Assembly (NCBI GenBank): GCA_964462755.1
Contig: CAYWZD010000003.1
Span: forward strand, 1-44,600
Direction of reading: 5' to 3'
Source: an uncultured Victivallales bacterium
GTDB taxonomy: Bacteria > Verrucomicrobiota > Lentisphaeria > Victivallales > UBA1829
Length of the DNA stretch: 44,600 nt
The notes beneath the pieces are model-generated. The model was not told where the DNA came from. It made no database searches and worked only from the letters and a program-made list of their open reading frames with translations. Positions 1,686 to 37,496 of the stretch are shown here, piece after piece. Position 1 is the first letter of the stretch. The number at the start of each line of letters is the position of its first letter. The position numbers and the translations under genes were made by a program.

Positions 1686-1785
1686 AACTCCCCTTCTTTC
1701 AGAAAAAAAATGCCTTGATGTTAAATCAGCGGGAACCCGTTCAGGAACGGGAAACCAGCGACGTTCTATTTGCATTGAAACCAAT

Positions 1786-1817
1786 CAGACCGGCTCAATC
1801 GAAAGGAGTCCGGTCTG
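1786..1817 (-). terminator. Possible hairpin terminator after the 216-aa gene
   Basis: 8-bp inverted repeat CAGACCGG / CCGGTCTG directly downstream of the stop at 1826 on the minus strand, followed by a modestly T-rich stretch. Confidence 0.35.
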
Positions 1818-1825
1818 AAGCAGAA

Positions 1826-2476: not shown

Positions 2477-2527
2477 GATGTATTGTTCCTTTCTCTGATG
2501 TGGGTGACGGTTTTCTTACAAACTGCC

Positions 2528-3343: not shown

Positions 3344-3376
3344 ATTTCCCTCCATTTTTCAGTGTTTCTGAAATCA

Positions 3377-3405
3377 ATTATATAAGATTTTTCATGGAAT
3401 GTCAA
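3377..3405 (-). promoter_or_regulatory. Consensus sigma70-type promoter for the pseudopilin operon
   Basis: On the minus strand: TTGACA, 17-nt spacer, TATAAT. Confidence 0.65.
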
Positions 3406-3434
3406 TTGAAAATTCCGACAAACATAGGTATAAT
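3406..3434 (+). promoter_or_regulatory. Sigma70-type promoter for the AraC gene
   Basis: TTGAAA, 17-nt spacer, TATAAT. It abuts the divergent -35 box. It lies inside the ORF-track 5' extension, which supports the start at 3457. Confidence 0.6.
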
Positions 3435-3456
3435 AAAGACAAAACAGAGGTATTTC

Positions 3457-9786: not shown

Positions 9787-10512
9787 TTATTCGTATAAAG
9801 CGTTTCCATACTGCTGATTGGCAATATTGGTCAACCCCTGACTCAACGAAGGGTTGGCCTTTCTGGCCTCGATATGTCCGTCCGTGAAAAGGGCCTCGAC
9901 GGAAGTGTCGTGCCGGAAATCAAGATATCCGGCGCTGTATGCGGTATGGGAAAGACGTTCGAAAACATTGCTGCCCTTGCCGTCGGCCATCTGAAGGGTG
10001 CTGGAAGGTTTTTTGATGGAAACAGGACGGAGGGCGGGCAGCAGAGTGCCGGTCGTCATGTTGGTCGTGCCGTTGGAATTGATCTGCGGATGGACGGACT
10101 TGTTGATGTTGTAAAAGCTCCAGCCGAGCCAGCCGGTTTCGGTGAAGTCGCTCCGCCCCCCGCAGCGGTAGACATTGCCGCTTCTGGGAAACTCGAACGG
10201 GGTGCGAACCTTTCCGAAAATATATGGCGAAAGAAAATTGAAGTAATAGGTCGTACCTCCCTGATAGGACATCGACGGACAATAGTATTCCTTGTTGTCG
10301 GCGCAATAGTATGTGGATGCCAGCGACCACTGTTTCAGGTTGCCGGCACAGGAGGAGCGGTAGGCCATCTGGCGTGCCCGGTTCAGTGCCGGGAGAAGCA
10401 TTCCCGCCAGAATTGCAATGATCGCTATCACAACCAGCAATTCTATTAATGTAAATTCCCGCACCCCAATCCCGCATGGATTCAACCTCCGGAAAGTTCT
10501 GTTCATCCTCAT
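9787..10512 (-). CDS. Prepilin-type N-terminal helix protein, H-X9-DG family
   Basis: [49 protein letters not shown]-terminal [21 protein letters not shown] before ATG 10512 is preferred over the ORF-track start 10635. Confidence 0.9.
10372..10455 (-). repeat. Dispersed prepilin-helix repeat (copy 2 of 4)
   Basis: Encodes [28 protein letters not shown]. The nucleotide sequence is alignable to the other three copies. Confidence 0.75.
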
Positions 10513-10644
10513 TGGAATCAGCCCTCCATTATTTTGCAGCTTCTGTTTGATTGGACATTCCGTTTCCCTTCCGGGTTCCCGGTGAAACCGCAGGGGAAAT
10601 CTCTGTTTTCTGAAATAATTATAATCGGATTTCAAAAGGAAACC

Positions 10645-10705: not shown

Positions 10706-11533
10706 ATGATTCTTTCGGAATTGATTCTGATGGTGGAGGAGCTTTGCAGCGTGTCCGTGTCCATGCAGATCATGGATGAACGGCTCTCCGAATGCCGGAA
10801 TCTCCAGCTCACCCAGGACCAGCAGCTTCACCACAGCGAGATCTGCCGAAGCAACAAGATGTCCGAGTTCACGACCTGCCTGCGGAACAAGGGAAGAAGC
10901 TGTACGATTGCGCTGCGCGGACGCGCCTTCAGCGGGAAATGCCCGAAAGGGGTATGGGATCTGGCGATTCCGGTTCAACTGAACGGAAAAACGGTCGCAA
11001 TCGTCTATCTGGGCGGAGTGCTGGTTCCCCCGGATGAGGCCAAACGGAAAAAGCTGTATTCCTACGGTCGTTTCATCGCCCGGTTCATCGTGCTCGAACT
11101 TCTCCGGCAGGCGAAGCTCACCGGAGAACACCGGAAGCGCCGGAACGAACAATTCTACATCGACAACTGCTTCCGTTTTCTGGAGGAGCATTTCAGCTCG
11201 TCCGTATCCCTCGGAGATATGGCGGAAACGCTCAACGTCAACCCGAATTATCTGGGAAAACTGCTCAAGAAACATTTCAGGAAAAGTTTTCACGAACTGC
11301 TTTGCGAACGGCGCATGAAACAGAGCGAAGTGCTGCTGACGCTCCATCACGCATTGAATATCACGGAGATTGCGGGCTTGTGCGGATTCAGCGACAGCAA
11401 TTATTTCTCCACCGTCTTCCGGCATCATTTCGGGATGTCGCCGCGGGGATATCGCGCACGGCATCAGGCAAAACAGCCCGACCGGAAGAAAAATTCTCCG
11501 GCCGGGCCGAAAAAACAATCGGTAAGAATGTAA
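10706..11533 (+). CDS. PocR-sensor-domain AraC-family transcriptional regulator
   Basis: Cys-rich PocR-like N-terminal half (FSGKCPKGVWDLAIPVQLNGKTVAIVYLGG). C-terminal AraC HTH ITEIAGLCGFSDSNYFSTVFRHHFGMSPRGYR. The antisense ORF 10667-11518 is a shadow. Confidence 0.85.
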   Translation: MILSELILMVEELCSVSVSMQIMDERLSECRNLQLTQDQQLHHSEICRSNKMSEFTTCLRNKGRSCTIALRGRAFSGKCPKGVWDLAIPVQLNGKTVAIVYLGGVLVPPDEAKRKKLYSYGRFIARFIVLELLRQAKLTGEHRKRRNEQFYIDNCFRFLEEHFSSSVSLGDMAETLNVNPNYLGKLLKKHFRKSFHELLCERRMKQSEVLLTLHHALNITEIAGLCGFSDSNYFSTVFRHHFGMSPRGYRARHQAKQPDRKKNSPAGPKKQSVRM

Positions 11534-11540
11534 GAGGAAC

Positions 11541-12599
11541 TCAGACCGTCACTTCGCTGTTGGTCTCGCTGGACTTGTAAATTGCATCCAGCAGACGCAT
11601 CACGGTGATGCCTTCCTCGCCGGTGGCGGCGACTTTTCCCTTGCCCTGGACGGCATCGGCGAACTTCTGCATTTCAAGGGCGAAACGGTCGGCCTCGGTC
11701 TGGTAAGAGAGCTTCACATCGGCAATCCGGTTGTCGACTTCGGTCAGGATCTTGGTCTCTCCTTTTCCGACTTTCACCCCGCCTTTGGTGCCGAGGAATT
11801 CGACATATGAATCCTCCTCCGAATTACAGGCCCATGCAACCTCGAAATTCATGGTCGCCTTCTCGCCGAAGCGGATGAAGCCGCAGGCGAAATCATCCAC
11901 GTCGAAGACACCTTCGTATTTCGGCGGTCCGGCCCACATGGAAACATAGTGGTAATCCCGCATCGGCGCACCGAATTTGGAATAAGTCTTGGCGCTGACT
12001 TTCGTGGGATTCCAGAGTCCCGAGGTCCACATGGCAAGGTCGAAGAAATGGACGGCGATGTCGATCAGGCCGCCTCCGCCCGATTTTGCCTTGGTAGTGA
12101 ACCAGCCGCCGAGTCCGGGAATGCCGCGGCGGCGGATCAGCTTGACATGGATGTGATAGATGTCGCCGAGGCGTCCGGCCTCGATGCTTTCCTTGACAAC
12201 CACCGCTTCCGGCGTCTGACGCCAGACCATGCCCATCTGGAGCAGTTTCCCGGAACTGTCACGCGCCGCGAGAATCTTGCGTCCCATTCCGGCGTTCAGC
12301 GTCATGGGCTTTTCAAGCATTACGTGCTTGCCCGCCTTGAAAGCGGCAATCGCGATGGGCGCGTGCATGTCGTTCGGGGTGCAGACGCTGACAGCCTCAA
12401 TGGCGGGGTCTGCCAGAAGTTTCTTGTAGTCCGCATAGGTTTTGGCAATCTGATGACGTTTTGCCTTCTCCGCAAGACGGTCCGGCAGGATGTCACACAG
12501 TGCGACTACTTCAGCATTTTCCACTTTCGCGTACGCATCCGCGTGCACGGAACCGATCGTTCCGCACCCGATGATGCCGATCTTCACCTTTTTCCCCAT
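11541..12599 (-). CDS. Gfo/Idh/MocA-family NAD(P)-dependent oxidoreductase
   Basis: MGKKVKIGIIGCGTIGSVHA Rossmann start, plus the MLEKPMT motif. RBS GAAGGAG before ATG 12599. The ORF-track 5' extension to 12725 reads through the leader palindrome. Confidence 0.9.
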   Translation of the reverse strand: MGKKVKIGIIGCGTIGSVHADAYAKVENAEVVALCDILPDRLAEKAKRHQIAKTYADYKKLLADPAIEAVSVCTPNDMHAPIAIAAFKAGKHVMLEKPMTLNAGMGRKILAARDSSGKLLQMGMVWRQTPEAVVVKESIEAGRLGDIYHIHVKLIRRRGIPGLGGWFTTKAKSGGGGLIDIAVHFFDLAMWTSGLWNPTKVSAKTYSKFGAPMRDYHYVSMWAGPPKYEGVFDVDDFACGFIRFGEKATMNFEVAWACNSEEDSYVEFLGTKGGVKVGKGETKILTEVDNRIADVKLSYQTEADRFALEMQKFADAVQGKGKVAATGEEGITVMRLLDAIYKSSETNSEVTV

Positions 12600-12659
12600 G
12601 ATTTCTCCTTCAAAAACAGTTGAGGGGTTCTCCTTCCAGCCCGGATATACGCTCCATCC

Positions 12660-12679
12660 CGCGGCGGACGTCCGCCGCG
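12660..12679. promoter_or_regulatory. Perfect 20-bp GC-rich palindrome in the oxidoreductase leader
   Basis: CGCGGCGGACGTCCGCCGCG, located 61-80 nt upstream of ATG 12599. Confidence 0.5.
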
Positions 12680-12733
12680 TACAGGTCTTCCCGCAATCCG
12701 AACCGCAAGGGAAAATAGAAAACAACGAAAGAT

Positions 12734-12761
12734 AATATATTTCATTTCATCGACGATTCAA
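12734..12761 (-). promoter_or_regulatory. Candidate sigma70-type promoter for the oxidoreductase gene
   Basis: Minus strand: TTGAAT, 16-nt spacer, TATATT. Confidence 0.4.
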
Positions 12762-13025
12762 ATGTCTTTGCGCTGTATTTGTCAATGAATTCAGGGATTG
12801 CCCGGAAAAATTTTTCGTGCCGCGGAGGCTGGTCGTGCAAAGCACGAAATCCCGCCCGGAGCGGTTCCCCCGCGCAAAGGCAAAGAGCATGAGGGCTCCC
12901 TCGCCTTAAACTCCCCGGCAGGTGAGAGTCGCCTGCACCTAGGCAAACAAGTCTGCCGTCTTTGAAAATTTCGACTGATGCCATACAATTTTCCCCTGAT
13001 AAATCAAAGTTTTTTGAAATCCGGC

Positions 13026-13053
13026 TTGACAATCCACTTCCAAAGCCTATATT
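13026..13053 (+). promoter_or_regulatory. Sigma70-type promoter for the GntR-PBP regulator gene
   Basis: TTGACA, 16-nt spacer, TATATT. Its position makes the ORF-track GTG start at 13056 implausible. Confidence 0.55.
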
Positions 13054-13097
13054 AGGTGGTAACTAAAAAACATACCACTAAGAAAGAGTTTGCCGCC

Positions 13098-14156
13098 GTG
13101 AACCTGCCGAAATACGAAAAAGTAAGACAATATGTGGTCGACATGATGTCCCGGCATCTGGATTCGGAAGAACCGATCATGTCCGAGCGGGAAATGTGCC
13201 GGACCTTCGGCGTCACCCGCACAACGGTCCGCAAAGCGATAAAAGTTCTGGTTCAGGAACAGGTGCTCATCCCGAAGCGGGGCCGCGGCCTTTTTGTAAA
13301 TGTGGCACCTTACAAAAACACTCTTTCCCGCCTGAAAAACACGCACAGGATTCTTCTGCTGACAAGCCGAGGACATGCTTCTTTTTACGATTCATGGTAT
13401 TTGAATACCATTGCGAGGTTATGCGGTGAAGTGGCGCGGGGAACCTCCCAGATGAACATCTGTTTTCTGACCGGGGAACCCGGAACCGAGCTGGAGGAAA
13501 TTCAAATGTATCATCCGGACGCCGTGCTCTGGCTGCGTCCGGACGAACCCCGTCTCAGGATCATTGAAGAACTGCGGAAAAGTATTCCTGTCTGCAACAT
13601 TCTGGATGTCATCCGCAAGGATTCATTCGCTGTAACGGTCGACTATAAAAAAGCCGGAAAAACAGCGGCCGAATGGTTCATACGCCGCGGCCGGAAAAAA
13701 GTCGCCTTCTTTGGAAAGAGCGGACTGGATTACCCTTCCGAAGTTCTGGATGACTTCTTCTTCGGCTGGAGAAACGCCTGGCGGGAAACGTTCGGATCGT
13801 TCGATGAAAATACCGCGATTTGCAGAAATGCGGATTTTAAAACGTTTCTCAACTCGAAACATGCCGAGGGCACGGATGGCATTTTCTGTTATTCGAATGT
13901 TTTTATAGGCCTCACCGAAGATATGGCCCGAACACGCATTCTCCAGTGTCCAATCATGGTGGACAGCGACTTCTACAAAATTCCATCCGGCGTAAAAATC
14001 AGACCGGAAGCGGAGATCGTGCTTTATCCGGACAGCGTGTTCCAAACGGCGGTCGACAATTTGATGGCCTCGCTCGAAAACCCGGACTATGTGCAATCGG
14101 AAACCGTGATCGAATCTTCGGTGAAAATACTGAAAACAGATGAAAACAGAAAATGA
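13098..14156 (+). CDS. GntR-type winged-HTH fused to a LacI/PBP1-like sugar-binding domain (AraR-like architecture)
   Basis: LPKYEKVRQYVVDMM...MSEREMCRTFGVTRTTVRKAIKVLVQEQVLIPKRGRGLFV, then ~270 aa of periplasmic-binding-protein-like fold. Start assigned to GTG 13098 (GAAAGAG 8 nt upstream); the exact start is uncertain. Confidence 0.8.
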   Translation: MNLPKYEKVRQYVVDMMSRHLDSEEPIMSEREMCRTFGVTRTTVRKAIKVLVQEQVLIPKRGRGLFVNVAPYKNTLSRLKNTHRILLLTSRGHASFYDSWYLNTIARLCGEVARGTSQMNICFLTGEPGTELEEIQMYHPDAVLWLRPDEPRLRIIEELRKSIPVCNILDVIRKDSFAVTVDYKKAGKTAAEWFIRRGRKKVAFFGKSGLDYPSEVLDDFFFGWRNAWRETFGSFDENTAICRNADFKTFLNSKHAEGTDGIFCYSNVFIGLTEDMARTRILQCPIMVDSDFYKIPSGVKIRPEAEIVLYPDSVFQTAVDNLMASLENPDYVQSETVIESSVKILKTDENRK

Positions 14157-14172
14157 CAATGAACCGGTTCGT

Positions 14173-14201
14173 TTCGATTCATTCTTATTCGAAAATAAAC
14201 T
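14173..14201 (+). promoter_or_regulatory. Weak candidate promoter for the pseudopilin/CBM-GH operon
   Basis: TTCGAT, 17-nt spacer, TAAACT. It is preceded by the 10-bp palindrome GAACCGGTTC (14161-14170). Confidence 0.3.
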
Positions 14202-14222
14202 GATTGAGAAAGGAGATATCCC

Positions 14223-15023
14223 ATGAAACGCCTCACAGCCATTCTCCGGAACCGAATCGCAAAGGGCGCGGTCTCACGGACCAGAACTCCCCGAAAATTC
14301 ACATTGATCGAACTCCTTGTCGTGATCGCCATCATCGCGATTCTGGCCGGAATGCTGCTGCCGGTGCTGAGCCGTGCGCGGGAAACGGCCCGTGGCGCGG
14401 CGTGCAAAAACAACCTGCGGCAGCTGGGGCAACTCTGGGATAATTATGCTCTGGACAACAACGAGTATGTGATTCCTTTCCTGCCGTATTCAAGCAAGGT
14501 CAGGACAGACGGCAACCCCTGCTGGTGGTTCGAATTCATGATTATGGAAGACATCATTCCCGGAGCGTCCAAGGGAGGCAAGACTCTTGTTGCGACGGGC
14601 GCCCGACAGATTCTCACCTGCCTTTCCGATGACAGCGAAACCGGCGGGCCGTATCAATTTTTCAGCTCTTTCAAATGTCCCTTGAGTTATGCTTATCTCT
14701 ATGCGACAAGACCCGGTTTCACGAGCGCATCCGGGGATTACCTTCTCAAGCTGTCGCAGATTCGGAACAATGCAAGCAGAGTCCCGCTCTTTGCGGATTG
14801 CTGGAAATGGTGGAAAAATCATCCGGACGCAACCAGTAAAACAACCTATTTCCCAAGACTCACGCCCACATACCGCAATCTGGGATTGAACCGGGCGCAT
14901 ACGAGAGGCATGAACATGGTATTCATCGCAGGAAATGTCGGGGAAGAAGCGGAAGTCATTTGCCGTCAGGCTTCCGCTCAATATGATCTCTGGAATGATG
15001 GAACGACTCTGACCTATAGATAA
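14223..15023 (+). CDS. Prepilin-type N-terminal helix protein, variant H-X9-AG motif
   Basis: 25-aa basic leader, then [30 protein letters not shown]-terminal [12 protein letters not shown] (Ala replaces the family Asp). RBS AAGGAG. Confidence 0.9.
14298..14381 (+). repeat. Dispersed prepilin-helix repeat (copy 3 of 4)
   Basis: Encodes [28 protein letters not shown]. Confidence 0.75.
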
Positions 15024-18550: not shown

Positions 18551-18611
18551 CACTCGCCGAACCCATGAAATGAAACGATTCCATTCTTTTTCCATTGTCT
18601 TTTTTTCAAGC

Positions 18612-18627
18612 TGGCATGATTTTTGCT
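18612..18627 (+). promoter_or_regulatory. Sigma54 (-24/-12) promoter of the secretin operon
   Basis: CTGGCATGATTTTTGCT against the consensus YTGGCACGrNNNTTGCW. GG and GC have canonical spacing, with a single mismatch (C to T). Confidence 0.65.
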
Positions 18628-18811
18628 AAGTATCAAAACATAGCCTTGAAAAAACAGGTCAACGGAAAAAAGATGAAGGAGGTGTCATTCGGGAAAACGG
18701 AAAAAACAGAAAAGAAGTGTGACGGATTCGCATATCTGTCCCGTCTGGGGGAAGTTGTAAAGAGATCAAAATATTCCGTAAATGGACATAACTCCGGGAA
18801 ATGGAACTGCA

Positions 18812-20182
18812 ATGGCAACGAAAGATCAATTGAAAAAAAAAGCGCTCTATTGTATACTGTATACATTCATCCTGCTTGCATCGGGAGGCTACGCGGCGGA
18901 GACACGGCAAATCCATCTGATCCAAGACGATGCACAGCGGAAAATGGTCACGAAGATTTATAAGCTCAAGTATGTCCAGGCGACGGACATACGGCCCTGG
19001 GTGGACGCCGCGGCAAAACGGTATACCGACCAGTCCACGCTTTGCCGGATCAGCATTCCGACGCTGAGCGAATGCTGGGTCGGCGTCACCACGGCCACTG
19101 AAATGATGCCCTACATCGACGACCTGGTCGCAAAGCTGGACCGGCCCGGAAAAAAAGGACCGGACGGCTCCCTGATCGAAGGCACCGGCGTCACCAAGGG
19201 AATCTATTATCCCAAATACACCTCCACCGCCATGCTCCAGAAACTCTGCCACATTCTCACCTCGCCGGTGGGAGCCGTCTACGACACCAACAGCACGCTC
19301 TACTGGAAAGACGACAAAACCTACAGCGACGGCATTCTCGAATGGGCGAAATATTTCGACCAGCCGGCCGCCCAGACGAACCTGACGCTGAAATATTATC
19401 TGGTGCGGGAATCGAAACTGCGCGATCTCGGCATCGACTATCTGGCATGGAAAAACGGTCCGGGGCTCAATATGCTGGATTTCGCATACGACGCGGGACG
19501 CGCAACCTTCTCCCGCGCAACCAGCCTCGCAACCCATGCGGCCACATGGGGATACGGATCGTTTCTTGTGGCGCCCGCGTTCGACATGAGTTTCGTCCGC
19601 ATGCTCCAGCAGTCCGGTTCCGCGGAAGTGATGGCCACGGCGAACGCAACCTTCATCTCCGGTGCCGAATCGAACCTGACGCTCGATCCCGTCCTCCAGA
19701 TGATCCAGAAGGATGGGGACGACACCACTTCGGTCATGGGATACATCTCCCCCTCGCTGCTGCCCTCCTTCAACGTGAGGGTCGGAGGCGTCATCGGACT
19801 TGATCCGGAAGCATCAATCCTCAAGGACAGCGGACAGTTCGACATGAACGGCTCTTTCTTTACGAAGAACAAGGGCAATCTTCTTCTCAACTACGCCCTC
19901 TCTTCCAACGACGTCACGGAGGTCGACAACAACGGAGCCCCGGTGGAAACCGTCTGCACCCTTGCCAGCGATACGACTCTCGCTTTCGGGGACGAGGTCA
20001 TCCTCCAGCGGCTCACCAGAAACTCGAAGACGGAGGAAACCATCGGCGTTCCCTTCCTCTGCGAGGTTCCGATCCTCAAATATCTCTTCGGGACCACAAC
20101 CACGATCAACGAGAAAATCTATATCTTCGTGACGGTGAAAGCGAATCTTGTCAACCCGGATGCACCCGTTCCGGTCAAGTAA
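18812..20182 (+). CDS. Compact secretin-family outer-membrane channel protein, paralogue 1
   Basis: Signal peptide MATKDQLKKKALYCILYTFILLASGGYA (alternative ATG at 18782). Two NolW/Secretin_N-like repeats (KIYKLKYVQATDIRPWV...IDDLVAKLD). Secretin domain ends GVPFLCEVPILKYLFGTTTTINEKIYIFVTVKANLV. Confidence 0.85.
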   Translation: MATKDQLKKKALYCILYTFILLASGGYAAETRQIHLIQDDAQRKMVTKIYKLKYVQATDIRPWVDAAAKRYTDQSTLCRISIPTLSECWVGVTTATEMMPYIDDLVAKLDRPGKKGPDGSLIEGTGVTKGIYYPKYTSTAMLQKLCHILTSPVGAVYDTNSTLYWKDDKTYSDGILEWAKYFDQPAAQTNLTLKYYLVRESKLRDLGIDYLAWKNGPGLNMLDFAYDAGRATFSRATSLATHAATWGYGSFLVAPAFDMSFVRMLQQSGSAEVMATANATFISGAESNLTLDPVLQMIQKDGDDTTSVMGYISPSLLPSFNVRVGGVIGLDPEASILKDSGQFDMNGSFFTKNKGNLLLNYALSSNDVTEVDNNGAPVETVCTLASDTTLAFGDEVILQRLTRNSKTEETIGVPFLCEVPILKYLFGTTTTINEKIYIFVTVKANLVNPDAPVPVK

Positions 20183-20202
20183 CCCCAAGGAAGCATTGAA
20201 AA

Positions 20203-21819
20203 ATGAAGTTCAACACCCCCTCTGTCCTCTCTTTTCTTCTCGCCGCGCCGGGCCTCCTTTTTGCGGGCGGGGAGCAAACCATCAACCTCAACGGTCAGCC
20301 GGATCAGGGCGTCAACAATCCGACGGGAACCTACGCGCCCTCCAATGTGTCCGCGAAAATCAACATCAACCTCGATAAGAACGAAAAGAGCGTCCATTTC
20401 ATCCGCGACAACAACGACCCGTATGTCGTCACCAGGGCCTACGTGCTGAAAAATGCCGATCCCTATGTCGCGTGCGGCATTCTCCGCTCGCTCATACGTC
20501 CGACCATCAAGACCAATCCCGCCACGGTCGACGCCATCAAATACAACGACGGGACAGGGATCGTGATGGTCTCCGCCGAAGAAAACTTCTTCCAGGACCC
20601 GGGAACCGGCATGAGCATCGAATCCATGGTCAACATGATCGACATCAACAAAATGGTCTTCTCGGACGGAAGGAAGAGATATGTCTACTTCTGCAAGGCC
20701 AACACCGCCGCCACCATGCTCAAGATGATCCGGCGGGTCGGCCTCCTTTCCGCAAACGGCGTCGAGTCCGTCACCTACGGCAGAATGCCGAAAGAATACC
20801 AGGTCACCATCGATGAAACGCACAACGCCATTTTCTTCAACGCCTCCGGCTTCAACATTTCCTCCTCCCGGGCCATGCTTGCGGAATACGACGTTCCCGC
20901 CTGTCAGGGAACCCTCGACTACAAGCTGATCGAGGTTTCGGACGAGAATGACACCAAGCTCGGCCTCGACTTCCAGAGCTGGAAAAACAACGACGGCATC
21001 TCCCTCTTCTCCGCCGGCGCCGTTTTCTCCCGTTCCGGCAGAACCAACAACTACTCGATGCTGAACTTCAACCCCAAGTGGAATTCGAAATACATCGATT
21101 TCCTGATGGCCACAAGCCATGCGAAGATCGTTCATTCCGGCTCCATCACCATTCAGGACACCTGCCCGATGAACATCTCCGTGTCCTCCGGAATGATGGG
21201 GGTCGTGGTCACCCCGGTCGGAGACAAGGGCGAAGTGCTCGGCGAAGCGATTGCCTCGGCCTCCAACGCGGCCGTCAAGGTGCTCAGACAGATTCCCGCG
21301 AGAGTCGAGGCGATGCCGCTCTCCCAGGGAACTCTTCAGGAGATCAAGCCGACGGAAGGCTTCTCCTTCAACGCCGCCATTCTGCCGTCGCTCGGAAGCA
21401 CATCGGCCTCCCTCAACGTCGCCATCAGCGGGGTCTCCCTGATCGGCTACGACAGCACCGGCGCGCCCCGCATGGTTTCCTCCTCCTATGTCTCCGATGT
21501 TCAGGTCGGCACGCAGAAGGACTTCATGATCGGCGGCATCACCAAGTCAAAACTCATCCGCACGGTCAACGGGATTCCTTTCCTGAAAGACATCCCGCTC
21601 CTCGGATATCTTTTCAGCACGGAAACAACCGCCATCAAGAAATCCCAGTTCATCCTGATGTGCTCCTATACGCCCGACGTCCATCCCGGCGGAAAAGACG
21701 GCTCCGCACTCATGGCGGACATCAGCAAGATCGAAGCCAAACTCAAGGAAGTCGAAAAGCATCCGACAAAAGCCCTCGGTTTCGAACAATACGGAATCGA
21801 TACGGATAAGATCGAATAA
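20203..21819 (+). CDS. Compact secretin-family outer-membrane channel protein, paralogue 2
   Basis: Signal peptide MKFNTPSVLSFLLAAPGLLFAGG. N-domain repeats. C-terminal NGIPFLKDIPLLGYLFSTETTAIKKSQFILMCSYTPDV. RBS AAGGAAG. Motifs are paralogous to the upstream gene. Confidence 0.85.
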   Translation: MKFNTPSVLSFLLAAPGLLFAGGEQTINLNGQPDQGVNNPTGTYAPSNVSAKININLDKNEKSVHFIRDNNDPYVVTRAYVLKNADPYVACGILRSLIRPTIKTNPATVDAIKYNDGTGIVMVSAEENFFQDPGTGMSIESMVNMIDINKMVFSDGRKRYVYFCKANTAATMLKMIRRVGLLSANGVESVTYGRMPKEYQVTIDETHNAIFFNASGFNISSSRAMLAEYDVPACQGTLDYKLIEVSDENDTKLGLDFQSWKNNDGISLFSAGAVFSRSGRTNNYSMLNFNPKWNSKYIDFLMATSHAKIVHSGSITIQDTCPMNISVSSGMMGVVVTPVGDKGEVLGEAIASASNAAVKVLRQIPARVEAMPLSQGTLQEIKPTEGFSFNAAILPSLGSTSASLNVAISGVSLIGYDSTGAPRMVSSSYVSDVQVGTQKDFMIGGITKSKLIRTVNGIPFLKDIPLLGYLFSTETTAIKKSQFILMCSYTPDVHPGGKDGSALMADISKIEAKLKEVEKHPTKALGFEQYGIDTDKIE

Positions 21820-21842
21820 ACCAGTCTCTCTCCACCCACCGG

Positions 21843-21882
21843 GGCAGTGAGCGGCTCTCTCTCCGCTCACTGCCTCATTTTT
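21843..21882 (+). terminator. Rho-independent terminator of the secretin operon
   Basis: 12-bp stem GGCAGTGAGCGG / CCGCTCACTGCC, 8-nt loop, then TCATTTTT. The 3' arm overlaps the last codons of the convergent AraC gene. Confidence 0.8.
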
Positions 21883-22709
21883 CGAAAATGCTTCGGCGTC
21901 TGACCGGTCATGTGCCGAACCGCCTGCGTAAAATACGACGCATTCCAGAAACCGCACCGCCGCGCCGTTTCCGCCACGGAATCCCCCGCCGCCAGACGCT
22001 CCAGAGCATGCCTCAACCGGATGGACCGCAGACACTCGCCCGGCGTTTCGCGCCGGTTCATGCGGAATGCCCTGGATACCGTTGCCCGGTGAAAGTTCAG
22101 CATTCCGCAGAGCGTTCCGGCATTGACCGACGGGTCCGCGTAATGACGTTCCGCCGCCTCCGAATAAGCACGGACAAGCTGAATATCCTTCTGGTCGGAA
22201 TTGGATTGCGCATGTCCCGCGGCAGCCAGTATCTCCACGGCGGCGGCAACCGCTTCCCGGAAAGAACCCGGCGTGCCCTGCCCCAGTGCCGTCTCATACC
22301 GGACGAAAATTCTTTCCGGACACCGTCCAGCGCCGCGAACCACCCGCGGAAATCCGAAACTCCGCAAAAAAGCGCCAGCGCCGGGACCGTCGAACGTCAG
22401 CCACCGGAGCGCAAGTCCGGATTGGTCGGGCCGGTTTTCGCGAGCCTCCTTCGGATACTGGAAAACCACGTCTCCAGCCTCGACGCTCTCCGGTTCCCCG
22501 CCGGCCAGCATGGTCCCCCTCCCCCATGAAACCCAGGTGATCTGGACAAACGGTTTGTCCTGTCCGGAACCGGTTTCATCCTTTCCGAAAGGAAGACGTG
22601 TCTCTCCCGCGGACCTCGGATAGAACGGCAGGGGCATTTCCGGAAAGCCGGGAAATCCTTTCCGCAACCTCGTATAATACCCGGTGTGCGACAAAATCGA
22701 TGTTTTCAC
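21867..22709 (-). CDS. AraC-family transcriptional regulator
   Basis: C-terminal dual HTH (SVAETARRCGFWNASYFTQAVRHMTGQTPKHFRK) with a cupin-like N-terminal half. It is divergent from the GH35 gene. Confidence 0.85.
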   Translation of the reverse strand: MKTSILSHTGYYTRLRKGFPGFPEMPLPFYPRSAGETRLPFGKDETGSGQDKPFVQITWVSWGRGTMLAGGEPESVEAGDVVFQYPKEARENRPDQSGLALRWLTFDGPGAGAFLRSFGFPRVVRGAGRCPERIFVRYETALGQGTPGSFREAVAAAVEILAAAGHAQSNSDQKDIQLVRAYSEAAERHYADPSVNAGTLCGMLNFHRATVSRAFRMNRRETPGECLRSIRLRHALERLAAGDSVAETARRCGFWNASYFTQAVRHMTGQTPKHFRKMRQ

Positions 22710-30945: not shown

Positions 30946-31917
30946 ATGGAAAACAGTGTGAAACATTTCAAACTCTCCTATCCCGCGTGGAGCGTCACGT
31001 GGAACGGAAAAACCATCTGCAAGCGTCCGACGGAGGACTTCATCACGCAGATCGAGGACTTGAAATCAGTCGGCATCGACGAGCTGATGCTGACTGGATA
31101 TCATTGCGAAGAACCTGCGGATTTCGACATGGATGAGGAAACGCTCCGGCTCGGAAACCTTCTGCGCGAACGGGGCATGAAGGGGGCGCAGCACCATTCT
31201 CTCACCAGCTTTTACACCACCCCCGGAGAATCGCAGGACGAAGTGATCCGCCGGATGAAAAAATGCATAGACTACACGGCGAACCTGAACACGGATGTCG
31301 TAGTCTTCCACGCAATGAAATTTCTGGGAAGCACGGATGCCGGAAAGGATGTCGAGCGCGACCTGAAAGAAGCCATCCGCAAGACCTCTGCGGACGCGGT
31401 CATGGAAACGCTCTGCTCCAATCTTCATGCCGCCGGAGAATACGCGAAGGAACGCGGCGTGCGGATCGCCGTCGAAAATCTCGACCGTTTCACGCCTTGG
31501 TGCGGGATGGAACACCTTCCGGAAATCGTGCGGGGCGCGGACTCGGAGGCGGTCGGGTTCTGCCTCGATACAGGCCACGCGTGGTGCGGCGGAATCGATC
31601 CGGCGAAGTGGGTGCCGGTCATGGGAGACAAACTCTTCACAACGCATGTCCACGACAATCACGGGCTTCCGGAAAAATTCATCGGATACGACGGCCTCAT
31701 CGACGTCGTCAACGAGCCTCTGGACGAACATCTCCCGCCCGGATTCGGCACGATCTCATGGAAGGATTTCATCCGCGCCCTCTGGAAACTCGGATATGAC
31801 CGGACCGTCAATTTCGAGTCCAACGGCTGGCCCGGTCTGGAAAAGAAGGATTCTTACGAGTGCGCCATCCAATTCTGGAGAACCTGCGAACTGCTTTCGA
31901 TCCAACGGATAAAATGA
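30946..31917 (+). CDS. Sugar phosphate isomerase/epimerase (xylose-isomerase-like TIM barrel)
   Basis: [22 protein letters not shown] and HVHDNHG metal-ligand pattern. RBS GAAGGA before ATG 30946; the ORF-track TTG at 30937 is less likely. Confidence 0.85.
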
Positions 31918-31931
31918 GAAGGGAGTGCATC

Positions 31932-32747
31932 ATGAAGAGAGAAAAGAGGGGGTTCACATTAATAGAACTCCTGGTCGTGGTTTCAATCATCGCGATTCTG
32001 GCGGGACTTCTGCTTCCGGCGCTGACCCGGGCGCGCGACATGGCGAAACGCATCAGCTGTCATTCCAACGTCCGGAACCTGAACCTTTGGAACATCTCCT
32101 ATTCCAGTGATTCCGGGGGTTGGTCGACTCCTTATGCCCTGCTGGGAAAAAGATGGTATGACCTTTTCAACACGCTCGGTTATTCGGGAACAGTCTCCGT
32201 GACGGTCAATTCGAATAAGAAAAACATCAATTACATCTTCCTCAAGATGCGCTGTCCGTCGAACCGTCTGACGCAGGAAGGCGTGGTGGCTGCCCATCCC
32301 GCCGACTGGTTCAATTATTTCAGCACGATTGCCTCTTACGGACTCAACGGCAACATGGGATATACTGAATCCTCGTCGCCCCTTTCCTCGGTCAACCTCA
32401 TCAAAACCGCCAGAGTCAAACATCCATCCCGCCGTCTGGTCTTCGCCGACAAGGCGGAAGCCGTGGCATCAAGCGACCTGATGGCATGTATCGACGGCTC
32501 AAACCGTCCGATTCACGACCGTCACAACCGTTCGACTCCCATCGGTTTTCTGGATGGACATGCGGAATCGCGCGACCCGGCCAAGGTCAATCCGCTCGGA
32601 ACGGTTGTCGGTTCCTGCAATCCTTATAACAACAGCATCGTTACACCAACCATCGTATCAGGAACGCTCAATACGTCTCCCGTCGACCTCCGGTATCTGT
32701 GGGGGATGAACGGAGGCATCGGCGACTACCGTTACGATTACCCGTAA
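31932..32747 (+). CDS. Prepilin-type N-terminal helix protein, H-X9-DG family (canonical Gly at -1)
   Basis: [37 protein letters not shown]-terminal [25 protein letters not shown] before ATG 31932. Confidence 0.9.
31953..32036 (+). repeat. Dispersed prepilin-helix repeat (copy 4 of 4)
   Basis: Encodes [28 protein letters not shown]. About four fifths of nucleotides are identical to copy 1 by manual count. Confidence 0.8.
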
Positions 32748-33431: not shown

Positions 33432-34910
33432 ATGATGAACGACCGGAAAAAAGTGCTCGGCGCGTGGCTCGGCAAAGCCGTCGGAGGAACCCTTGGACAA
33501 CCCTGGGAAGGCTGCCGCGGACCGCTCGCCCTCACCTTCTACGATCCCGTCCCGACCCGGATGATGCCCAACGACGACCTCGATCTTCAGGTGGTCTGGG
33601 CCTGCCGTCTCGCGACCGACTGGAACGCGACCGTCTCCCTGAAGAATTTCGCCGACGCATGGCTGCACAATATCGGGTTCCCCTGCGACGAATACGGCGT
33701 CGTCATCCGGAACCTCAAGCTCGGTATTCCGGCCCCGTATTCGGGACGTTACGACAACTGGTTCACGGACGGCCTCGGCGGGGCCATCCGCGCGGAAATA
33801 TGGGCGGTCCTCGCGCCGGGCGATCCGGAGCGCGCCGCAAAACTCGCCGGGATGGACGCCAGCCTCGATCACGACGGCAATGGAATCTACGCAGAACAGT
33901 TTCTCTCCGCGATGGAAAGTTACGCGTTCGTGGAATCCGATCTGAATAAACTCATCGCGAAGGGACTCTCCCTGATTCCGTCGGAATCGCGTCTGCACAA
34001 GGCTCTTTCCGACACGGTTTCCTGGTGCGGAGAAGGACTCGATTTCCACGCGGTCCGGGAACGGATCATGACACATCAGGGGAGCCCGAATTTCACGGAT
34101 GTCAAGATGAACCTCTCCTTCATGGTCGCGGCGCTGCTGCTGGGCAAGGGCGATTTCGAACGAACGGTCTGCCACGCGGTCAATTTCGGGCAGGACGCCG
34201 ACTGCACCGGGGCAACCGTCGGGGCGATCCTCGGCATCATCGATCCGGATTCGATTCCCGCCCGCTGGCTGGCGCCGATCGGCCGCGCCCTGATTCTGAA
34301 TCAGGGAATCACCGGAATCCGCCCACCCGCCACACTGGACGATTTCACCGATCTTCTTATTTCCCTGCGCGAAAAACTCCGGGTGGAGGAAGAGGTGGTC
34401 CCGCCGCCCGATCTGACGGAATTTCAGATTTCCGTCCGACGTTCGGTGTTCCATCCGTGGTTCGCGCTGGACTTCCGCAAATTCAAGCCCGTTCCTGCCG
34501 AAGACGCGGAGGAGATTCTCCTTCCCGGAAATCTGGTCACGGTCGATTTTTCGGATCTTCCGCCGGAATCCCTGCTCCTGCTGGAAACGGAATTCGAACT
34601 GGAGGAGGACCGCGTCGTTCATCTGCTGGTGAACACCCCCGCCAACCTCCGCGTCTGGCTGGACGGCGAATACTGTTTCGGACGGGAAGGGGGGGAGATG
34701 GTGCCCGCGTTTCACCGTGCACAGCTCAACCAGTTCGCAGCGCCTTTCCTGAAGAAGGGACGCCACACTCTCCGGATGGGGCTGGCTCCGGCGGCGGAAG
34801 GGATGAAGTCCGCCGAACTGCTTTTCGGCATCGCGGATGAAAACGACCAGTGGTTTCCCCGTGCGTTTTACCTCAAGGGAAGGGAATCCGGAAAATGTTG
34901 TTCCGACTGA
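33432..34910 (+). CDS. ADP-ribosylglycohydrolase-fold protein with C-terminal beta-sandwich-like extension
   Basis: GGTLGQPWEG, NDDLDLQ and FGQDADCTGATVGAILG match the ARH/DraG family pattern. No signal peptide. The ATG lies 1 nt after the upstream stop. Confidence 0.8.
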   Translation: MMNDRKKVLGAWLGKAVGGTLGQPWEGCRGPLALTFYDPVPTRMMPNDDLDLQVVWACRLATDWNATVSLKNFADAWLHNIGFPCDEYGVVIRNLKLGIPAPYSGRYDNWFTDGLGGAIRAEIWAVLAPGDPERAAKLAGMDASLDHDGNGIYAEQFLSAMESYAFVESDLNKLIAKGLSLIPSESRLHKALSDTVSWCGEGLDFHAVRERIMTHQGSPNFTDVKMNLSFMVAALLLGKGDFERTVCHAVNFGQDADCTGATVGAILGIIDPDSIPARWLAPIGRALILNQGITGIRPPATLDDFTDLLISLREKLRVEEEVVPPPDLTEFQISVRRSVFHPWFALDFRKFKPVPAEDAEEILLPGNLVTVDFSDLPPESLLLLETEFELEEDRVVHLLVNTPANLRVWLDGEYCFGREGGEMVPAFHRAQLNQFAAPFLKKGRHTLRMGLAPAAEGMKSAELLFGIADENDQWFPRAFYLKGRESGKCCSD

Positions 34911-37480
34911 CGTTTCTGTTATTTCTCGTAATCGCCGTGCCGAGCCTTCCGGCGCAGGAGACGGTGGAGGTCGGTCATTTCTTCAAGCCCGACAAGATGG
35001 ACTCCGGCTACACGAGCGAACTGATTCATTTCATGGAAAAGAACCCGGATATCCGCGTGGAACAATGGGCCGGCTTGATCCTGCCGGGCGGAAATGCCGG
35101 ACTCATGATGTCCCTTGCCGGGAATACCGCGCCCGACATCGGATTGAGTTATTTCCACCTCATCCGGAACGAGATCAAGCAGGAATTTCTGTATCCGCTG
35201 AACGAATGGATCGGGGAAGACGCCAACAGTAACGGCCGGATCGACGACGCCGAGGCGAAGTGGCCCCGTTGGAAGGAGTTTCCGCCGATCCTGCGGACCG
35301 TGGCCACTTCCGGAGGCAAAATCTACGGGCTTCCCCTGCCCGTGAAAAGCATCTGCGCCGTCCTCTACCGCACGGATTTTGTGGAAATGGCCGGACTGGA
35401 CCCAAACCATCCGCCCGAAACATGGGACGAGTTCACGGTCTGGTGCCGCCGTCTCACGGATGCGAACAAGACCATTCCCGGCGCCCTCACGCAGAACGGA
35501 CAGCGCGCCATCCTGATTCCTTCCAACGGATTCCTTTTTCTGCCGTGGATTCAGTCGGCGGGCGGGGAGCCGATCGTGCAGTACCGGACCAGTCCGAAAA
35601 CAGGCAGAAAATACTGTTTCGCGCAGAATGAAACGGTTTTTCGCACCCCGGACGGCGAGGACCTCTCGCGGGAGCCCTCCGATTGGCGTTGCAACTTCGA
35701 CTCCCCGGAAGCGTTTCAAGCACTGGACTTCCTGTATCGTCTGCGCTGGGAAAAATGGGTCAGCATCGACGGAAAACCGGTCAGCCTGAAGGAGGCCCGG
35801 AAACAGGGGCTTCATTTCAAGGAAAAAGACATCGTGACGGGCGTGGCCCGGAGCTCCAGCGGACAGCGCGGCGAAAGCGGGTTCGAACTGCTTTCGCGCG
35901 GGGAAGTCGTCATGCTGATCGGCATGGTCGAAGACCTCAAACAGGTCGGCACGCAGGCCAATATCGACCCGTCGCTGCTGGCATGGTTCCCCTTCCCCGC
36001 CGCGCCCGGACCGAAAGGACGCCGCGTCATTCAGACTCAGAACCATTACGCGGTCATGTACACGGGCGTTTCCAAGCGCTCCAAAAGGGAACGGGACGCC
36101 GTCTGGAGAACCCTCAACGCCATCACCGGCGACCGCATCGTGGAGCGGGATGTGGCGTCCAAGGTGCTGGAGGGCATGGCCCGCTTCGTCTCGCCGTCGG
36201 ACCTGAAACGGTTCGGCTATGAGGAATACATCCGGGACATTCCGCCCGCGATCAGGAAGAACTTCTCCGATCTGGAAGCGGGGAAAATCCTTTCCTTCAC
36301 CGAGCCGTGGACCGGCTACTGGCTCCTGATCGACATGGCGCTGAACAACGAATGTCTCGGCATCATGCTCGGGGCGCTCGGGGAGGATTTCGACAGCCGG
36401 GGCGCCCTCCTCGAAGTCAACCGCAAGGCGAACTCGGGACTGATGTTCGCTCTGCCGGAAAGCACCCTCGCGAAATGGCGTCCCGTCGCAATGTCGATCC
36501 TGATTCTCGTCCTTCTGGCAACCGCGTTTCTGATTTTCATCATCGTGAAATCTTTCCTGAAAAAACGCGCGGACGGAAGCCGTTCCGTCTACAAGGGCTA
36601 CCTGCCGCTCCTCCTGATTTTCCCCGCCGTTCTCCTCATTCTTCTGTGGCAGTACTATCCGCTGGGACGCGGTCTGCTGATGGCCTTTCAGGATTACCGG
36701 GTGACCGGCAATTCCACTTTCACGGGACTGGACAACTTCATCAATCTGGGGCTTGACCCTGCCTTCTGGAAAAGCATCGGGCGGACCGTGTATTTCGTCA
36801 CGCTGAATATGCTTTTCGCTTTCACGGCGCCCATCATTCTGGCGATCATGCTGACCGAGATCAAGCACCTCAAAATTCTCTTCCGCACGCTGTTCTTCCT
36901 GCCCCAGATGACCAGCGGAATCGTCATCGCGCTGATGTGGAAACTCATGTACAACCCGACCCCCGCGGGCTTCTTCAACCAGATGATCGCGTATCTGAAC
37001 TATCTGCCGTTCGTGAACATCCGGCCGCAGGCATGGCTTCAGGACCCGTCGCTGGCGATGATCTGCTGCATCATCCCGACCGTGTGGGCGTCGATGGGAA
37101 TGTCCAGCCTGCTGTATCTTGCGGCGCTGCACTCCATCCCGCCGGACCTCTACGAAGCGGCCGAGGTGGACGGCGCGGGCTTCCGTTCAAAACTCTGGAA
37201 CATCACACTTCCCACGCTGATGCCGCTGATCATCATCAGTTTCGTCGGGACGTTCATCGCCACGTTCCAGAACATGGGCAACATCTTCCTCCTGACGTTC
37301 GGAGGACCGGGCGAAGCCACCACCGTGATCGGGCTGAAAATCTGGGTGGAGGCCTACGTGAATCTCCGTTTCGGCATGGCCACCTCCATGGCGTGCCTTC
37401 TCGGAACGCTGCTGATCGGGCTGACCTACGTGCAGATCCGTTTCCTTGGCAAGGTGGAATACAAACGGGCGTCGGACTGA
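34895..37480 (+). CDS. Fusion of a family-1 extracellular solute-binding protein and a MalF/UgpA-type ABC permease
   Basis: Signal/anchor MLFRLTFLLFLVIAVPSLPAQE. SBP-like ~520 aa. A TM segment begins near 36475. The permease carries the EAA loop LYEAAEVDGAGFRSKLWNITLPTLMP. The ATG overlaps the upstream gene by 16 nt. RBS AAGGGAAGGGAA. Confidence 0.85.
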   Translation: MLFRLTFLLFLVIAVPSLPAQETVEVGHFFKPDKMDSGYTSELIHFMEKNPDIRVEQWAGLILPGGNAGLMMSLAGNTAPDIGLSYFHLIRNEIKQEFLYPLNEWIGEDANSNGRIDDAEAKWPRWKEFPPILRTVATSGGKIYGLPLPVKSICAVLYRTDFVEMAGLDPNHPPETWDEFTVWCRRLTDANKTIPGALTQNGQRAILIPSNGFLFLPWIQSAGGEPIVQYRTSPKTGRKYCFAQNETVFRTPDGEDLSREPSDWRCNFDSPEAFQALDFLYRLRWEKWVSIDGKPVSLKEARKQGLHFKEKDIVTGVARSSSGQRGESGFELLSRGEVVMLIGMVEDLKQVGTQANIDPSLLAWFPFPAAPGPKGRRVIQTQNHYAVMYTGVSKRSKRERDAVWRTLNAITGDRIVERDVASKVLEGMARFVSPSDLKRFGYEEYIRDIPPAIRKNFSDLEAGKILSFTEPWTGYWLLIDMALNNECLGIMLGALGEDFDSRGALLEVNRKANSGLMFALPESTLAKWRPVAMSILILVLLATAFLIFIIVKSFLKKRADGSRSVYKGYLPLLLIFPAVLLILLWQYYPLGRGLLMAFQDYRVTGNSTFTGLDNFINLGLDPAFWKSIGRTVYFVTLNMLFAFTAPIILAIMLTEIKHLKILFRTLFFLPQMTSGIVIALMWKLMYNPTPAGFFNQMIAYLNYLPFVNIRPQAWLQDPSLAMICCIIPTVWASMGMSSLLYLAALHSIPPDLYEAAEVDGAGFRSKLWNITLPTLMPLIIISFVGTFIATFQNMGNIFLLTFGGPGEATTVIGLKIWVEAYVNLRFGMATSMACLLGTLLIGLTYVQIRFLGKVEYKRASD

Positions 37481-37496
37481 AAGGAGCAAACGCAAT

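Follow-up and report, generated by a model that had tools for sequence, protein, structure and literature searches.

A tandem pair of diverged secretin paralogues in Lentisphaeria, a candidate two-subunit outer-membrane channel

Secretins are the common outer-membrane gate of the type II (T2SS) and type III (T3SS) secretion systems, of type IV pili (T4P) and Tad pili, and of filamentous phage export. To our knowledge, each secretin ring studied so far is made of a single protein. The locus described here lies in a 44.6-kb stretch of DNA (44,600 nucleotides, hereafter called the window) from an uncultured Victivallales bacterium and carries two adjacent genes, secA and secB, for diverged secretin paralogues, which raises the question of whether the two products serve one channel or two. 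The pair also bears on protein export in Lentisphaeria, glycan-degrading bacteria that are abundant in the gut and rumen and that encode very large sets of pseudopilin-like genes and of secreted glycoside hydrolases. A paralogue pair that is phylum-wide, strictly conserved and repeatedly duplicated would represent a natural two-subunit secretin and, if this is true, would allow direct study of what determines the subunit number, symmetry and gating of these channels.

Organization of the secA-secB locus

An initial annotation of the window had described two adjacent secretin-paralogue open reading frames, which were recovered at the same positions together with all four of the motifs that it had quoted from the translations. 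The features of the locus, with domain boundaries as predicted, are as follows:

18612..18627, forward strand: sigma54-type promoter candidate, TGGCAT-N5-TTGCT (-24 GG / -12 GC), read from the sequence
18628..18811, forward strand: putative 5' untranslated leader of ~185 nt
18812..20182, forward strand: secA, 456-aa secretin paralogue (Pfam Secretin, AF2 model, Foldseek); signal peptide ~aa 1-29, N-domains aa 45-109 and 127-182, secretin domain aa 188-447
20183..20202, forward strand: intergenic spacer of 20 nt, containing the ribosome-binding site (RBS) AAGGAAG at 20187-20193
20203..21819, forward strand: secB, 538-aa secretin paralogue (Pfam Secretin, AF2 model, Foldseek, profile alignment); signal peptide ~aa 1-22, disordered to ~aa 60, N-domains aa 75-148 and 159-229, secretin domain aa 235-491, C-terminal helix aa 501-524 and then a conserved tail
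21841..21883, forward strand: intrinsic terminator with a 14-bp G+C-rich stem, an 8-nt loop and a T run, read from the sequence

From the sequence comparison, the start of secA is placed at the ATG at 18812, giving 456 aa, and not at 18782, because the upstream ATG reads ACG in the relative L005; the NCBI gene call in a 97%-identical relative, which is also 456 aa long, supports this assignment. The secA stop codon (20180-20182) is separated from the secB ATG (20203) by exactly 20 nt, and the RBS that had been attributed to secB lies 9 nt upstream of that ATG. The strong terminator reported after the pair was likewise found, with the 14 pairs of its stem at 21841-21876 and the T run following.

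The pair had also been credited with a sigma54 promoter of its own. A sigma54-like sequence is indeed present at 18612-18627 (TGGCATGATTTTTGCT), the strict pattern having a frequency of 0.0035 per kb across related loci, and it is kept in three close relatives (L005-L007) with a change in the spacer only. The L005 sequence diverges upstream of the motif, and the leader is conserved from the motif onwards in the window, L007 and L005; no Rfam family or riboswitch matched this leader. As a feature of the module as a whole the promoter was rejected, since among 79 upstream regions only the window and the three close relatives have the motif, and the candidate is specific to the lineage of the window as judged from these sequences.

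Secretin identity and relationship of the two proteins

Of the two Pfam families that had been invoked for these proteins, Secretin (PF00263) was recovered above its gathering cut-off of 27.5 bits in both (32.7 bits in secA, 49.3 bits in secB), the match being confined in each case to the model's C-terminal half. Secretin_N, on the other hand, gave a sub-threshold 13.3 bits in secA of the window and was absent in secB, although most secA homologues carry this annotation. The AF2 models, which are of moderate confidence (pLDDT 72.5 for secA and 60.5 for secB), each predict two beta-alpha-beta-beta-alpha N-domains followed by a secretin domain with long beta-hairpins, and AHL-like helices are present in both. 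Foldseek searches with the two models returned GspD, ExeD and EpsD first, and then InvG, PilQ, pIV and RcpA, with E values of 1e-14 to 1e-16 (5e-16 for secB against GspD/ExeD); the top 40 matches in the PDB are secretins without exception, and the N-domains also match crystal structures of the XcpQ/GspD N-domains. By inspection of the translations, both proteins appear to begin with a Sec signal peptide (secA starts MATKDQLKKKALYCILYTFILLASGGYAA/E and secB starts MKFNTPSVLSFLLAAPGLLFAG/GEQ), and no lipobox cysteine was seen at either N-terminus. Pfam and Foldseek together confirm the predicted secretin fold, preceded by ring-building N-domains in the models of both proteins, and the architecture first proposed for each, a signal peptide, two N-domains and a secretin domain, was upheld.

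Homology searches returned ~670 homologues of secA and ~740 of secB, and every source name among the secA matches listed is Lentisphaeria, Lentisphaerota or Victivallales/Victivallaceae. BLASTP aligned secA to secB with 23% identity over 263 aa (E 1e-14), and the profile-profile comparison was collinear across 417 columns (E 1.8e-32), in agreement with the earlier description of the two as compact, strongly diverged and collinear paralogues. Cross-profile scores between secA and secB were 56-126 bits, as against 49 bits for E. coli GspD and 24-27 bits for a canonical secretin of Lentisphaeria; by these scores, the two proteins resemble one another more than either resembles a canonical secretin. 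Estimates of dN/dS (~0.10 for secA and ~0.09 for secB, range 0.09-0.11) point to strong purifying selection on both genes. Pseudogene decay of either copy was rejected on these values and on the finding that both genes are intact in ~75 related pairs; split genes occur in only three MAG loci (L015, L063 and L078), possibly as a result of assembly error.

The two proteins differ in their distance from canonical secretins, and one reading of this difference, which we consider rather unlikely, is an unequal partnership in which secB is the pore and secA is an accessory protein that no longer forms a channel but might, for example, act in assembly or targeting, form an adaptor ring in the periplasm, or dock beneath the secB ring as a plug or gate. 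Such a division of labor would fit the much greater distance of secA from canonical secretins (best PDB sequence match E 5e-9, to pIV at 4.9e-9, vs E 6e-17 for secB) and the loss of the Pfam Secretin match altogether in some secA relatives. Unlike secA, secB has an N-terminal disordered segment, a C-terminal helix resembling the S-domain and a conserved tail, and the first two of these could mean that the proteins have different roles and are not equivalent subunits of the pore. However, secA has kept a whole secretin domain that is collinear with that of secB and includes the conserved C-terminal GIPFL..P.LKYLFG motif, the beta-strands of this domain are modelled at high confidence, and column conservation is higher in secA (54%) than in secB (46%).

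Among characterized secretins, GspD of the T2SS (PulD, EpsD, ExeD, XcpQ) is the one that both proteins match most closely in structure and in sequence. The secretin domain and an N3-type domain align to V. cholerae GspD, residues 225-581 in the case of the secB profile, and the C-terminal helix of secB sits where the pilotin-binding S-domain is located. The equivalog cut-off for GspD (TIGR02517, 351.35) was nevertheless not reached by secA (27.9 bits) or secB (60.4 bits), and the pair differs from GspD in the following respects: (i) GspD has an N0-N1-N2-N3 series, whereas only two N-domains and no N0 were detected in the moderate-confidence models of secA and secB; in GspD, N0 binds GspC, and the profile alignment to V. 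cholerae GspD begins at residue 225; (ii) GspD is encoded with gspC, gspE, gspF, gspG-M and gspO, whereas the pair lies outside a gsp operon; and (iii) GspD is a homo-15-mer from a single gene, whereas secA and secB are an obligate pair of paralogues.

The cut-off for PilQ of the T4P (TIGR02515, 284.35) was not reached either (27.4 bits for secA and 50.4 bits for secB), and both the AMIN domain, as searched for with Pfam, and nearby pilMNOP genes are missing from the pair. The likeness to PilQ consists in its presence among the structural matches, in PilT being encoded in the same genomes, and in the assembly of PilQ with TsaP/pilotin (PDB 6ve2), where a secretin ring is joined by a second outer-membrane-associated protein of different symmetry; unlike secA and secB, TsaP and pilotins are not secretin paralogues. 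Scores against T3SS SctC, MSHA MshL, HofQ and the Amuc_1098 family were at most 44 bits, below the NCBIfam cut-offs of 238-750. The filamentous-phage protein pIV, the top PDB sequence match of the secA profile, is similarly a compact secretin with few N-domains, but it has N0 and N3 domains, is phage-encoded and forms a homo-15-mer; no phage genes were found near the pair in the window. Orphan secretins encoded away from their machine include XqhA of Pseudomonas aeruginosa and PilQ/HofQ where these lie apart from pilB/C. They resemble the pair in that the secretin gene is not beside ATPase or platform genes, the machine presumably being elsewhere, yet they are single genes that form homo-oligomers, whereas secA and secB are two paralogues that lie together and are co-duplicated.

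Conservation of the pair across genomes

A genome scan yielded 80 best-scoring loci, of which 75 have DNA upstream of secB and the other five start at a contig end. In 75 of these 75 loci, secA is located directly 5' of secB on the same strand. The same order was found at 11 further loci identified by exact protein look-up (L001-L007 and L091-L094), among them divergent members from a 704-kb contig and from a MAG with the label Planctomycetota. Overall, at ~85 related loci of Lentisphaeria/Victivallales, secA immediately precedes secB wherever upstream DNA exists. The spacer measures 20-22 nt, the mode, in 41 of the 75 distinct pairs, and 60 of them have a Shine-Dalgarno-like core within it. 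Judged by this arrangement, the pair is a conserved module and not a local oddity, and we propose a new family, the Lentisphaeria tandem secretin pair (secA then secB on the same strand), in which the window and the related loci are placed. Our literature searches found nothing relevant on secretins in Lentisphaerae or on tandem or heteromeric secretins, and nothing on tandem secretins under DUF1559, type II secretion and Planctomycetes.

Duplication has likewise involved the pair as a whole. At least 18 of 63 assemblies carry at least two pairs, as counted among the 80 best-scoring loci, with two pairs inside 14 kb at L011, and every paralogous copy within a genome is again an A-B pair with order and spacing unchanged. 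When A and B are clustered at 50% identity, their clusters match, such that no A of one group is paired with a B of an unrelated group. The pairwise-distance matrices of A and B correlate with r = 0.98, and therefore the pairs appear to have been duplicated and inherited as units; a mirror-tree correlation is also expected from plain tandem inheritance without interaction.

These data bear on a second alternative, namely that secA and secB form two independent homo-oligomeric channels that are merely co-expressed, for instance one for a T4P-like pilus and one for T2SS-like secretion, or two for cargo of different sizes. We regard this as a minority prospect, though one of some weight: the characterized secretins among the PDB matches are all homo-oligomeric, a full secretin domain with AHL-like helices is predicted in both models so that each protein could in principle make its own ring, and with PilT and many pseudopilin-like genes in the same genomes, an outlet may be required by more than a single filament machine. 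Independent channels would, however, be expected to show occasional separation, single loss or single duplication, none of which was seen at the ~85 loci, and the paralogous copies are always A-B pairs.

Neighborhood of the pair and the nature of the channel

No ATPase, platform protein, prepilin peptidase or pilotin is encoded within the window, in which only four pseudopilin-like genes, of the N_methyl type, are present. Examination was extended to ~1.4 Mb of DNA around related pairs, up to 10 kb on each flank, and no extension ATPase (GspE/PilB), platform protein or prepilin peptidase was found within 10 kb of any pair. Queries with E. coli GspC, E, F, L, M and O had no match in the window, in line with its Pfam annotation, nor in the 10-kb surroundings of ~90 related pairs, except for one PilT-type ATPase at L043, which is 9 kb away on the opposite strand with an NMT1-type ABC transporter and BacA between. 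The placement of the pair away from a T2SS or T4P cluster, as initially annotated, therefore holds for ~90 loci, and in the vicinity of these pairs no secretin gene in a typical operon setting was seen. Its designation as an orphan is accurate in that no machinery is adjacent, but is less remarkable in this phylum, where the three PilT genes examined are likewise isolated among unrelated neighbors, without a T4P or T2SS gene alongside. An attempt to locate the T4P/T2SS core through the neighborhoods of PilT failed, as PilT stands alone.

The isolation of PilT would make secretin genes away from their machinery unsurprising, and would to that extent suit a third alternative, in which an ordinary T2SS or T4P locus was split by rearrangement and one copy is redundant or decaying. 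We consider this highly improbable in view of the strong purifying selection on both genes, the conservation of the pair across the class and beyond in unrelated neighborhoods, and the lack of core machinery genes in the flanks noted above, where the lone PilT is distant and on the other strand.

Mutual dependence of the two proteins is the best explanation for the arrangement, because a fixed two-gene unit moves between unrelated neighborhoods with no machinery adjacent. The obligate co-occurrence of two copies across Lentisphaeria suggests a two-subunit channel, and duplicated homo-oligomer genes often become obligate paralogous hetero-oligomers. On the gene arrangement, we put at about even the chance that secA and secB are two subunits of one outer-membrane secretin channel, which would most probably be a mixed ring, for example with alternating A and B. 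Strict pairing, co-duplication and co-divergence back a joint or hetero-oligomeric channel of this kind. More tentatively, the pair may represent the first known obligate hetero-oligomeric secretin, with an alternating secA/secB ring (e.g., 7+7 or 8+8) and several separately duplicated channels per Lentisphaeria genome, possibly for different cargo or machines. Against a joint channel, the solved secretins among the PDB matches are homo-oligomers, all of them, and with only ~20% identity between them, A and B need not pack side by side in a single barrel.

The joint channel may have arisen by tandem duplication of an ancestral secretin gene, the copies diverging to ~20% identity while keeping their architecture, with secB retaining more of the ancestral secretin sequence. 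Gene order and spacing, with secB beginning ~20 nt past the secA stop, indicate that both genes are read as one transcript, and roughly equal amounts of the two proteins would then be made. Both would be exported by Sec, in line with the signal peptides seen by inspection, and would co-assemble in the outer membrane, most probably as the mixed ring. The channel could then be the outer-membrane exit for a machine of the type IV filament type (T2SS-like or T4P-like) with its inner-membrane parts encoded elsewhere in the genome. Such a partner is not to be assumed, because another secretin of this phylum is encoded within a MacAB-type ABC pump operon.

The S-domain-like C-terminal helix of secB could clamp a neighboring subunit or bind a lipoprotein pilotin. 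A gene for a small DUF3887-like lipoprotein, which is a possible pilotin candidate, adjoins ~27 related pairs and is the sole specifically recurring neighbor; NMT1/ABC transporter genes also recur beside the pairs of one clade, and this recurrence is taken to be shared synteny and not function. At the distant loci L091 and L092, both members of the pair score higher against the secB profile than against the secA profile.

The secA and secB genes and their products

The interval that the initial annotation described as an orphan operon of two diverged compact secretin paralogues is filled by two forward-strand ORFs, secA and secB, and the four motifs quoted there were all found in their translations. 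The locus is laid out as follows.

Features of the secA-secB locus in the window
18611-18627, +: sigma54-like motif CTGGCATGATTTTTGCT, one mismatch to the -24/-12 consensus
18628-18811: leader of ~185 nt between the motif and the secA start
18812-20182, +: secA, 456 aa, stop codon at 20180-20182; the ORF is open also from 18782
20203-21819, +: secB, from the ORF call
21841-21883, +: hairpin (14-bp stem) followed by a T run, from sequence reading

By sequence comparison, the true start of secA is placed at the ATG at 18812 and not at 18782, because the upstream ATG reads ACG in L005 (one of three close relatives of the window, L005-L007) and because the gene called for a 97%-identical relative, on its NCBI contig, likewise encodes 456 aa. 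The spacer to secB is 20 nt long, and AAGGAAG lies within it, 9 nt 5' of the secB ATG.

Both products scored above the gathering score of Pfam Secretin (27.5 bits), with 32.7 bits for secA and 49.3 bits for secB. AF2 models were generated from 41-sequence alignments (pLDDT 72.5 for secA and 60.5 for secB), and the top 40 Foldseek matches in the PDB were all secretins, led for both models by GspD, ExeD and EpsD with InvG, PilQ, pIV, BfpB and RcpA after them, which bears out the assignment of two secretin paralogues. None of the curated NCBIfam secretin subfamilies (GspD, PilQ, SctC, MshL, HofQ, Amuc_1098) came near its cut-off for either protein; no curated family covers them. In each model, two N-domains of the beta-alpha-beta-beta-alpha type precede a secretin domain with its long hairpins. 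According to the model and alignment, secB has in addition a disordered stretch of ~40 residues after the signal peptide, and a C-terminal helix (aa 501-524) with a conserved tail. Residues 225-581 of Vibrio cholerae GspD, from the N3-type domain onward, align to the secB profile, and no N0 domain was seen in secB in this alignment. The two families are collinear across 417 profile columns (E 1.8e-32), the pairwise identity of secA and secB is 23%, and canonical secretins are nearer to secB than to secA.

The sigma54 promoter ascribed to the operon is plausible as a lineage-specific candidate. The motif is kept in L005-L007 with a change in its spacer only; in L005 the sequence 5' of it has diverged and that 3' of it is conserved. 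As a property of the module it was rejected, the motif being found upstream of no pair beyond the window and L005-L007. Relatives whose genes are 94-96% identical share the leader but not the sequence 5' of the motif, and the leader matched no Rfam family.

Conservation and co-duplication of the pair

Database searches returned ~700 relatives for each protein at 35-46% identity, and the source names, given for a minority of entries, were all Lentisphaeria, Lentisphaerota or Victivallales/Victivallaceae. When each GTDB species was scanned through one genome, 443 stretches encoding a secB relative were identified; the best 80 loci, from 63 assemblies, were analysed by scoring every ORF with HMMs built for both families. 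A secA-type gene lies directly 5' of secB on the same strand in every one of these 80 loci with upstream DNA; the five loci without one all begin at a contig end. The spacer measures 20-22 nt in 41 of the 75 distinct pairs, and 60 of the 75 carry an AAGGA-type core. Split genes were confined to three MAG loci, and secA and secB both show a dN/dS of 0.09-0.11 when the window is compared with its close relatives. An ordinary locus broken up, with one copy decaying, is excluded.

Several pairs per genome are common, since 17 assemblies contributed two loci each to the best 80 and locus L011 holds two pairs within 14 kb. The L011 pairs (1117-4393 and 11170-14393) belong to different pair clades and are separated by 7 kb of a single contig. 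Pairwise distance matrices of the two families (77 distinct sequences) correlate at r = 0.98, and their 50%-identity clusters match, with no secA-type protein paired with a secB-type protein of an unrelated group; each pair has therefore been copied and passed on as a unit, and partners have not been swapped. Searching 1.84 billion representatives yielded 195 clusters at E <= 1e-30. Divergent members on long contigs (L091, a 704-kb contig; L092, from a MAG that is labelled Planctomycetota; L093; L094) are again tandem pairs amid unrelated genes, housekeeping genes included. A weak relative of secB, P0454 (2549 aa, on a JGI contig of 9.3 kb), is a giant secretin in which one full secretin domain follows 24 Secretin_N repeats, a layout that implies a very long periplasmic conduit.

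The two genes are thus intact secretin paralogues of matching layout, always adjacent and tightly spaced, and the pairs are co-duplicated, co-diverging, under purifying selection and never beside machinery. We infer that secA and secB are mutually dependent and together build a single outer-membrane channel, a mixed ring being the simplest case. Two co-expressed homomeric rings fit poorly, being at odds with the lack of any secA or secB gene on its own. An unequal partnership, with secB as the pore and secA as an accessory to it, would fit the asymmetry between the families, but the secretin domain of secA is complete and highly conserved. A mixed ring, if demonstrated, would substantially raise the interest of the finding. 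Full-text literature searches returned nothing relevant on secretins in Lentisphaerae or on tandem or hetero-oligomeric secretins, and those on DUF1559, type II secretion and Planctomycetes gave nothing on tandem secretins. Each component is of a familiar type; what is undescribed, to our knowledge and in the literature searched, is the obligate pairing of two paralogues.

Gene neighbourhoods and candidate partners

The window encodes regulators (GntR, AraC-type, LacI), a GH35 beta-galactosidase, large CBM, malectin and laminin-G proteins, sugar-phosphate and oxidoreductase genes, an ABC transporter, a Ser/Thr kinase and LarA, together with four N_methyl (prepilin-type) pseudopilin-like genes, two of which have weak DUF1559 matches.

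Pseudopilin-like genes in the window
2528-3355, -
9787-10635, -
14223-15023, +
31860-32747, +

One of these lies directly 5' of the gene for the 1112-aa CBM protein encoded ahead of the secretin pair. The earlier observation that no ATPase, platform protein, prepilin peptidase or pilotin gene adjoins the pair holds throughout the 44.6-kb window, which encodes no GspE/PilB, GspF/PilC, prepilin peptidase, PilMNOP, GspC/L/M or pilotin. Other pairs sit in varied surroundings.

Genes flanking the pair
L001: sulfate assimilation and cysteine synthesis
L003: LexA and an MFS transporter
Window, L007, L093, L094: glycan utilisation
L043, and L011 by the sizes and order of the ORFs between its two pairs: NMT1-type ABC transporters

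Queries with Escherichia coli GspE, F, O, C, L and M gave no match within 10 kb of any pair, with the sole exception of a PilT-type ATPase in L043, 9 kb from the pair.

PilT-type retraction ATPase genes
L043: 11723-12724, -
L089: 10001-11095
L090: 10001-11107

These three PilT genes of Lentisphaeria lie amid unrelated ones (for riboflavin synthesis, BacA, PdxJ and others), and because no other T4P or T2SS gene adjoins them, components of type IV filament machines may, judging from PilT contexts, be scattered in these genomes. A pair (L014) and PilT (L089) occur together in assembly DCIG01. T4P-like or T2SS-like systems are candidates for the partner machine because PilT and many pseudopilin-like genes are present.

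A small lipoprotein encoded next to a secretin resembles a pilotin. In 26 loci and L094, a lipoprotein of ~150 aa with a signal peptide and a cysteine-containing lipobox-like motif is encoded just 5' of secA or just 3' of secB; a 282-aa duplicated version matches DUF3887. The window lacks it. Its gene position makes it a possible pilotin.

Lipoprotein genes beside the pair (examples; ~23 other loci have one)
L001: 7862-8326
L003: 11792-12244
L012: 11824-12672
L094: 7869-8393

A third, more canonical secretin (498/512 aa; full-length Pfam Secretin match, 137 bits) is encoded in two MAGs, in an operon 4-6 kb upstream of the pair.

Third-secretin operons
L085: 2215-7231, +
L084: 450-5521, -

In L085 this secretin is encoded first, followed by an HlyD-type membrane fusion protein, an ABC ATPase and a MacB-type permease; the L084 operon is likened to it by gene sizes and order. 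The L085 operon resembles that of a MacAB-like tripartite pump in which a secretin replaces the expected TolC-type channel, and secretins of this phylum may therefore not be limited to type IV filament machines.

The window also encodes unusually long ABC-transporter proteins (34850-37480 and 37446-39647, +): an 876-aa protein in which a solute-binding domain (SBP_bac_1) and a permease domain (BPD_transp_1) are combined, and after it a permease-domain protein of 733 aa. Another contig from Lentisphaeria shows the same fused layout (L090, 11632-16590).
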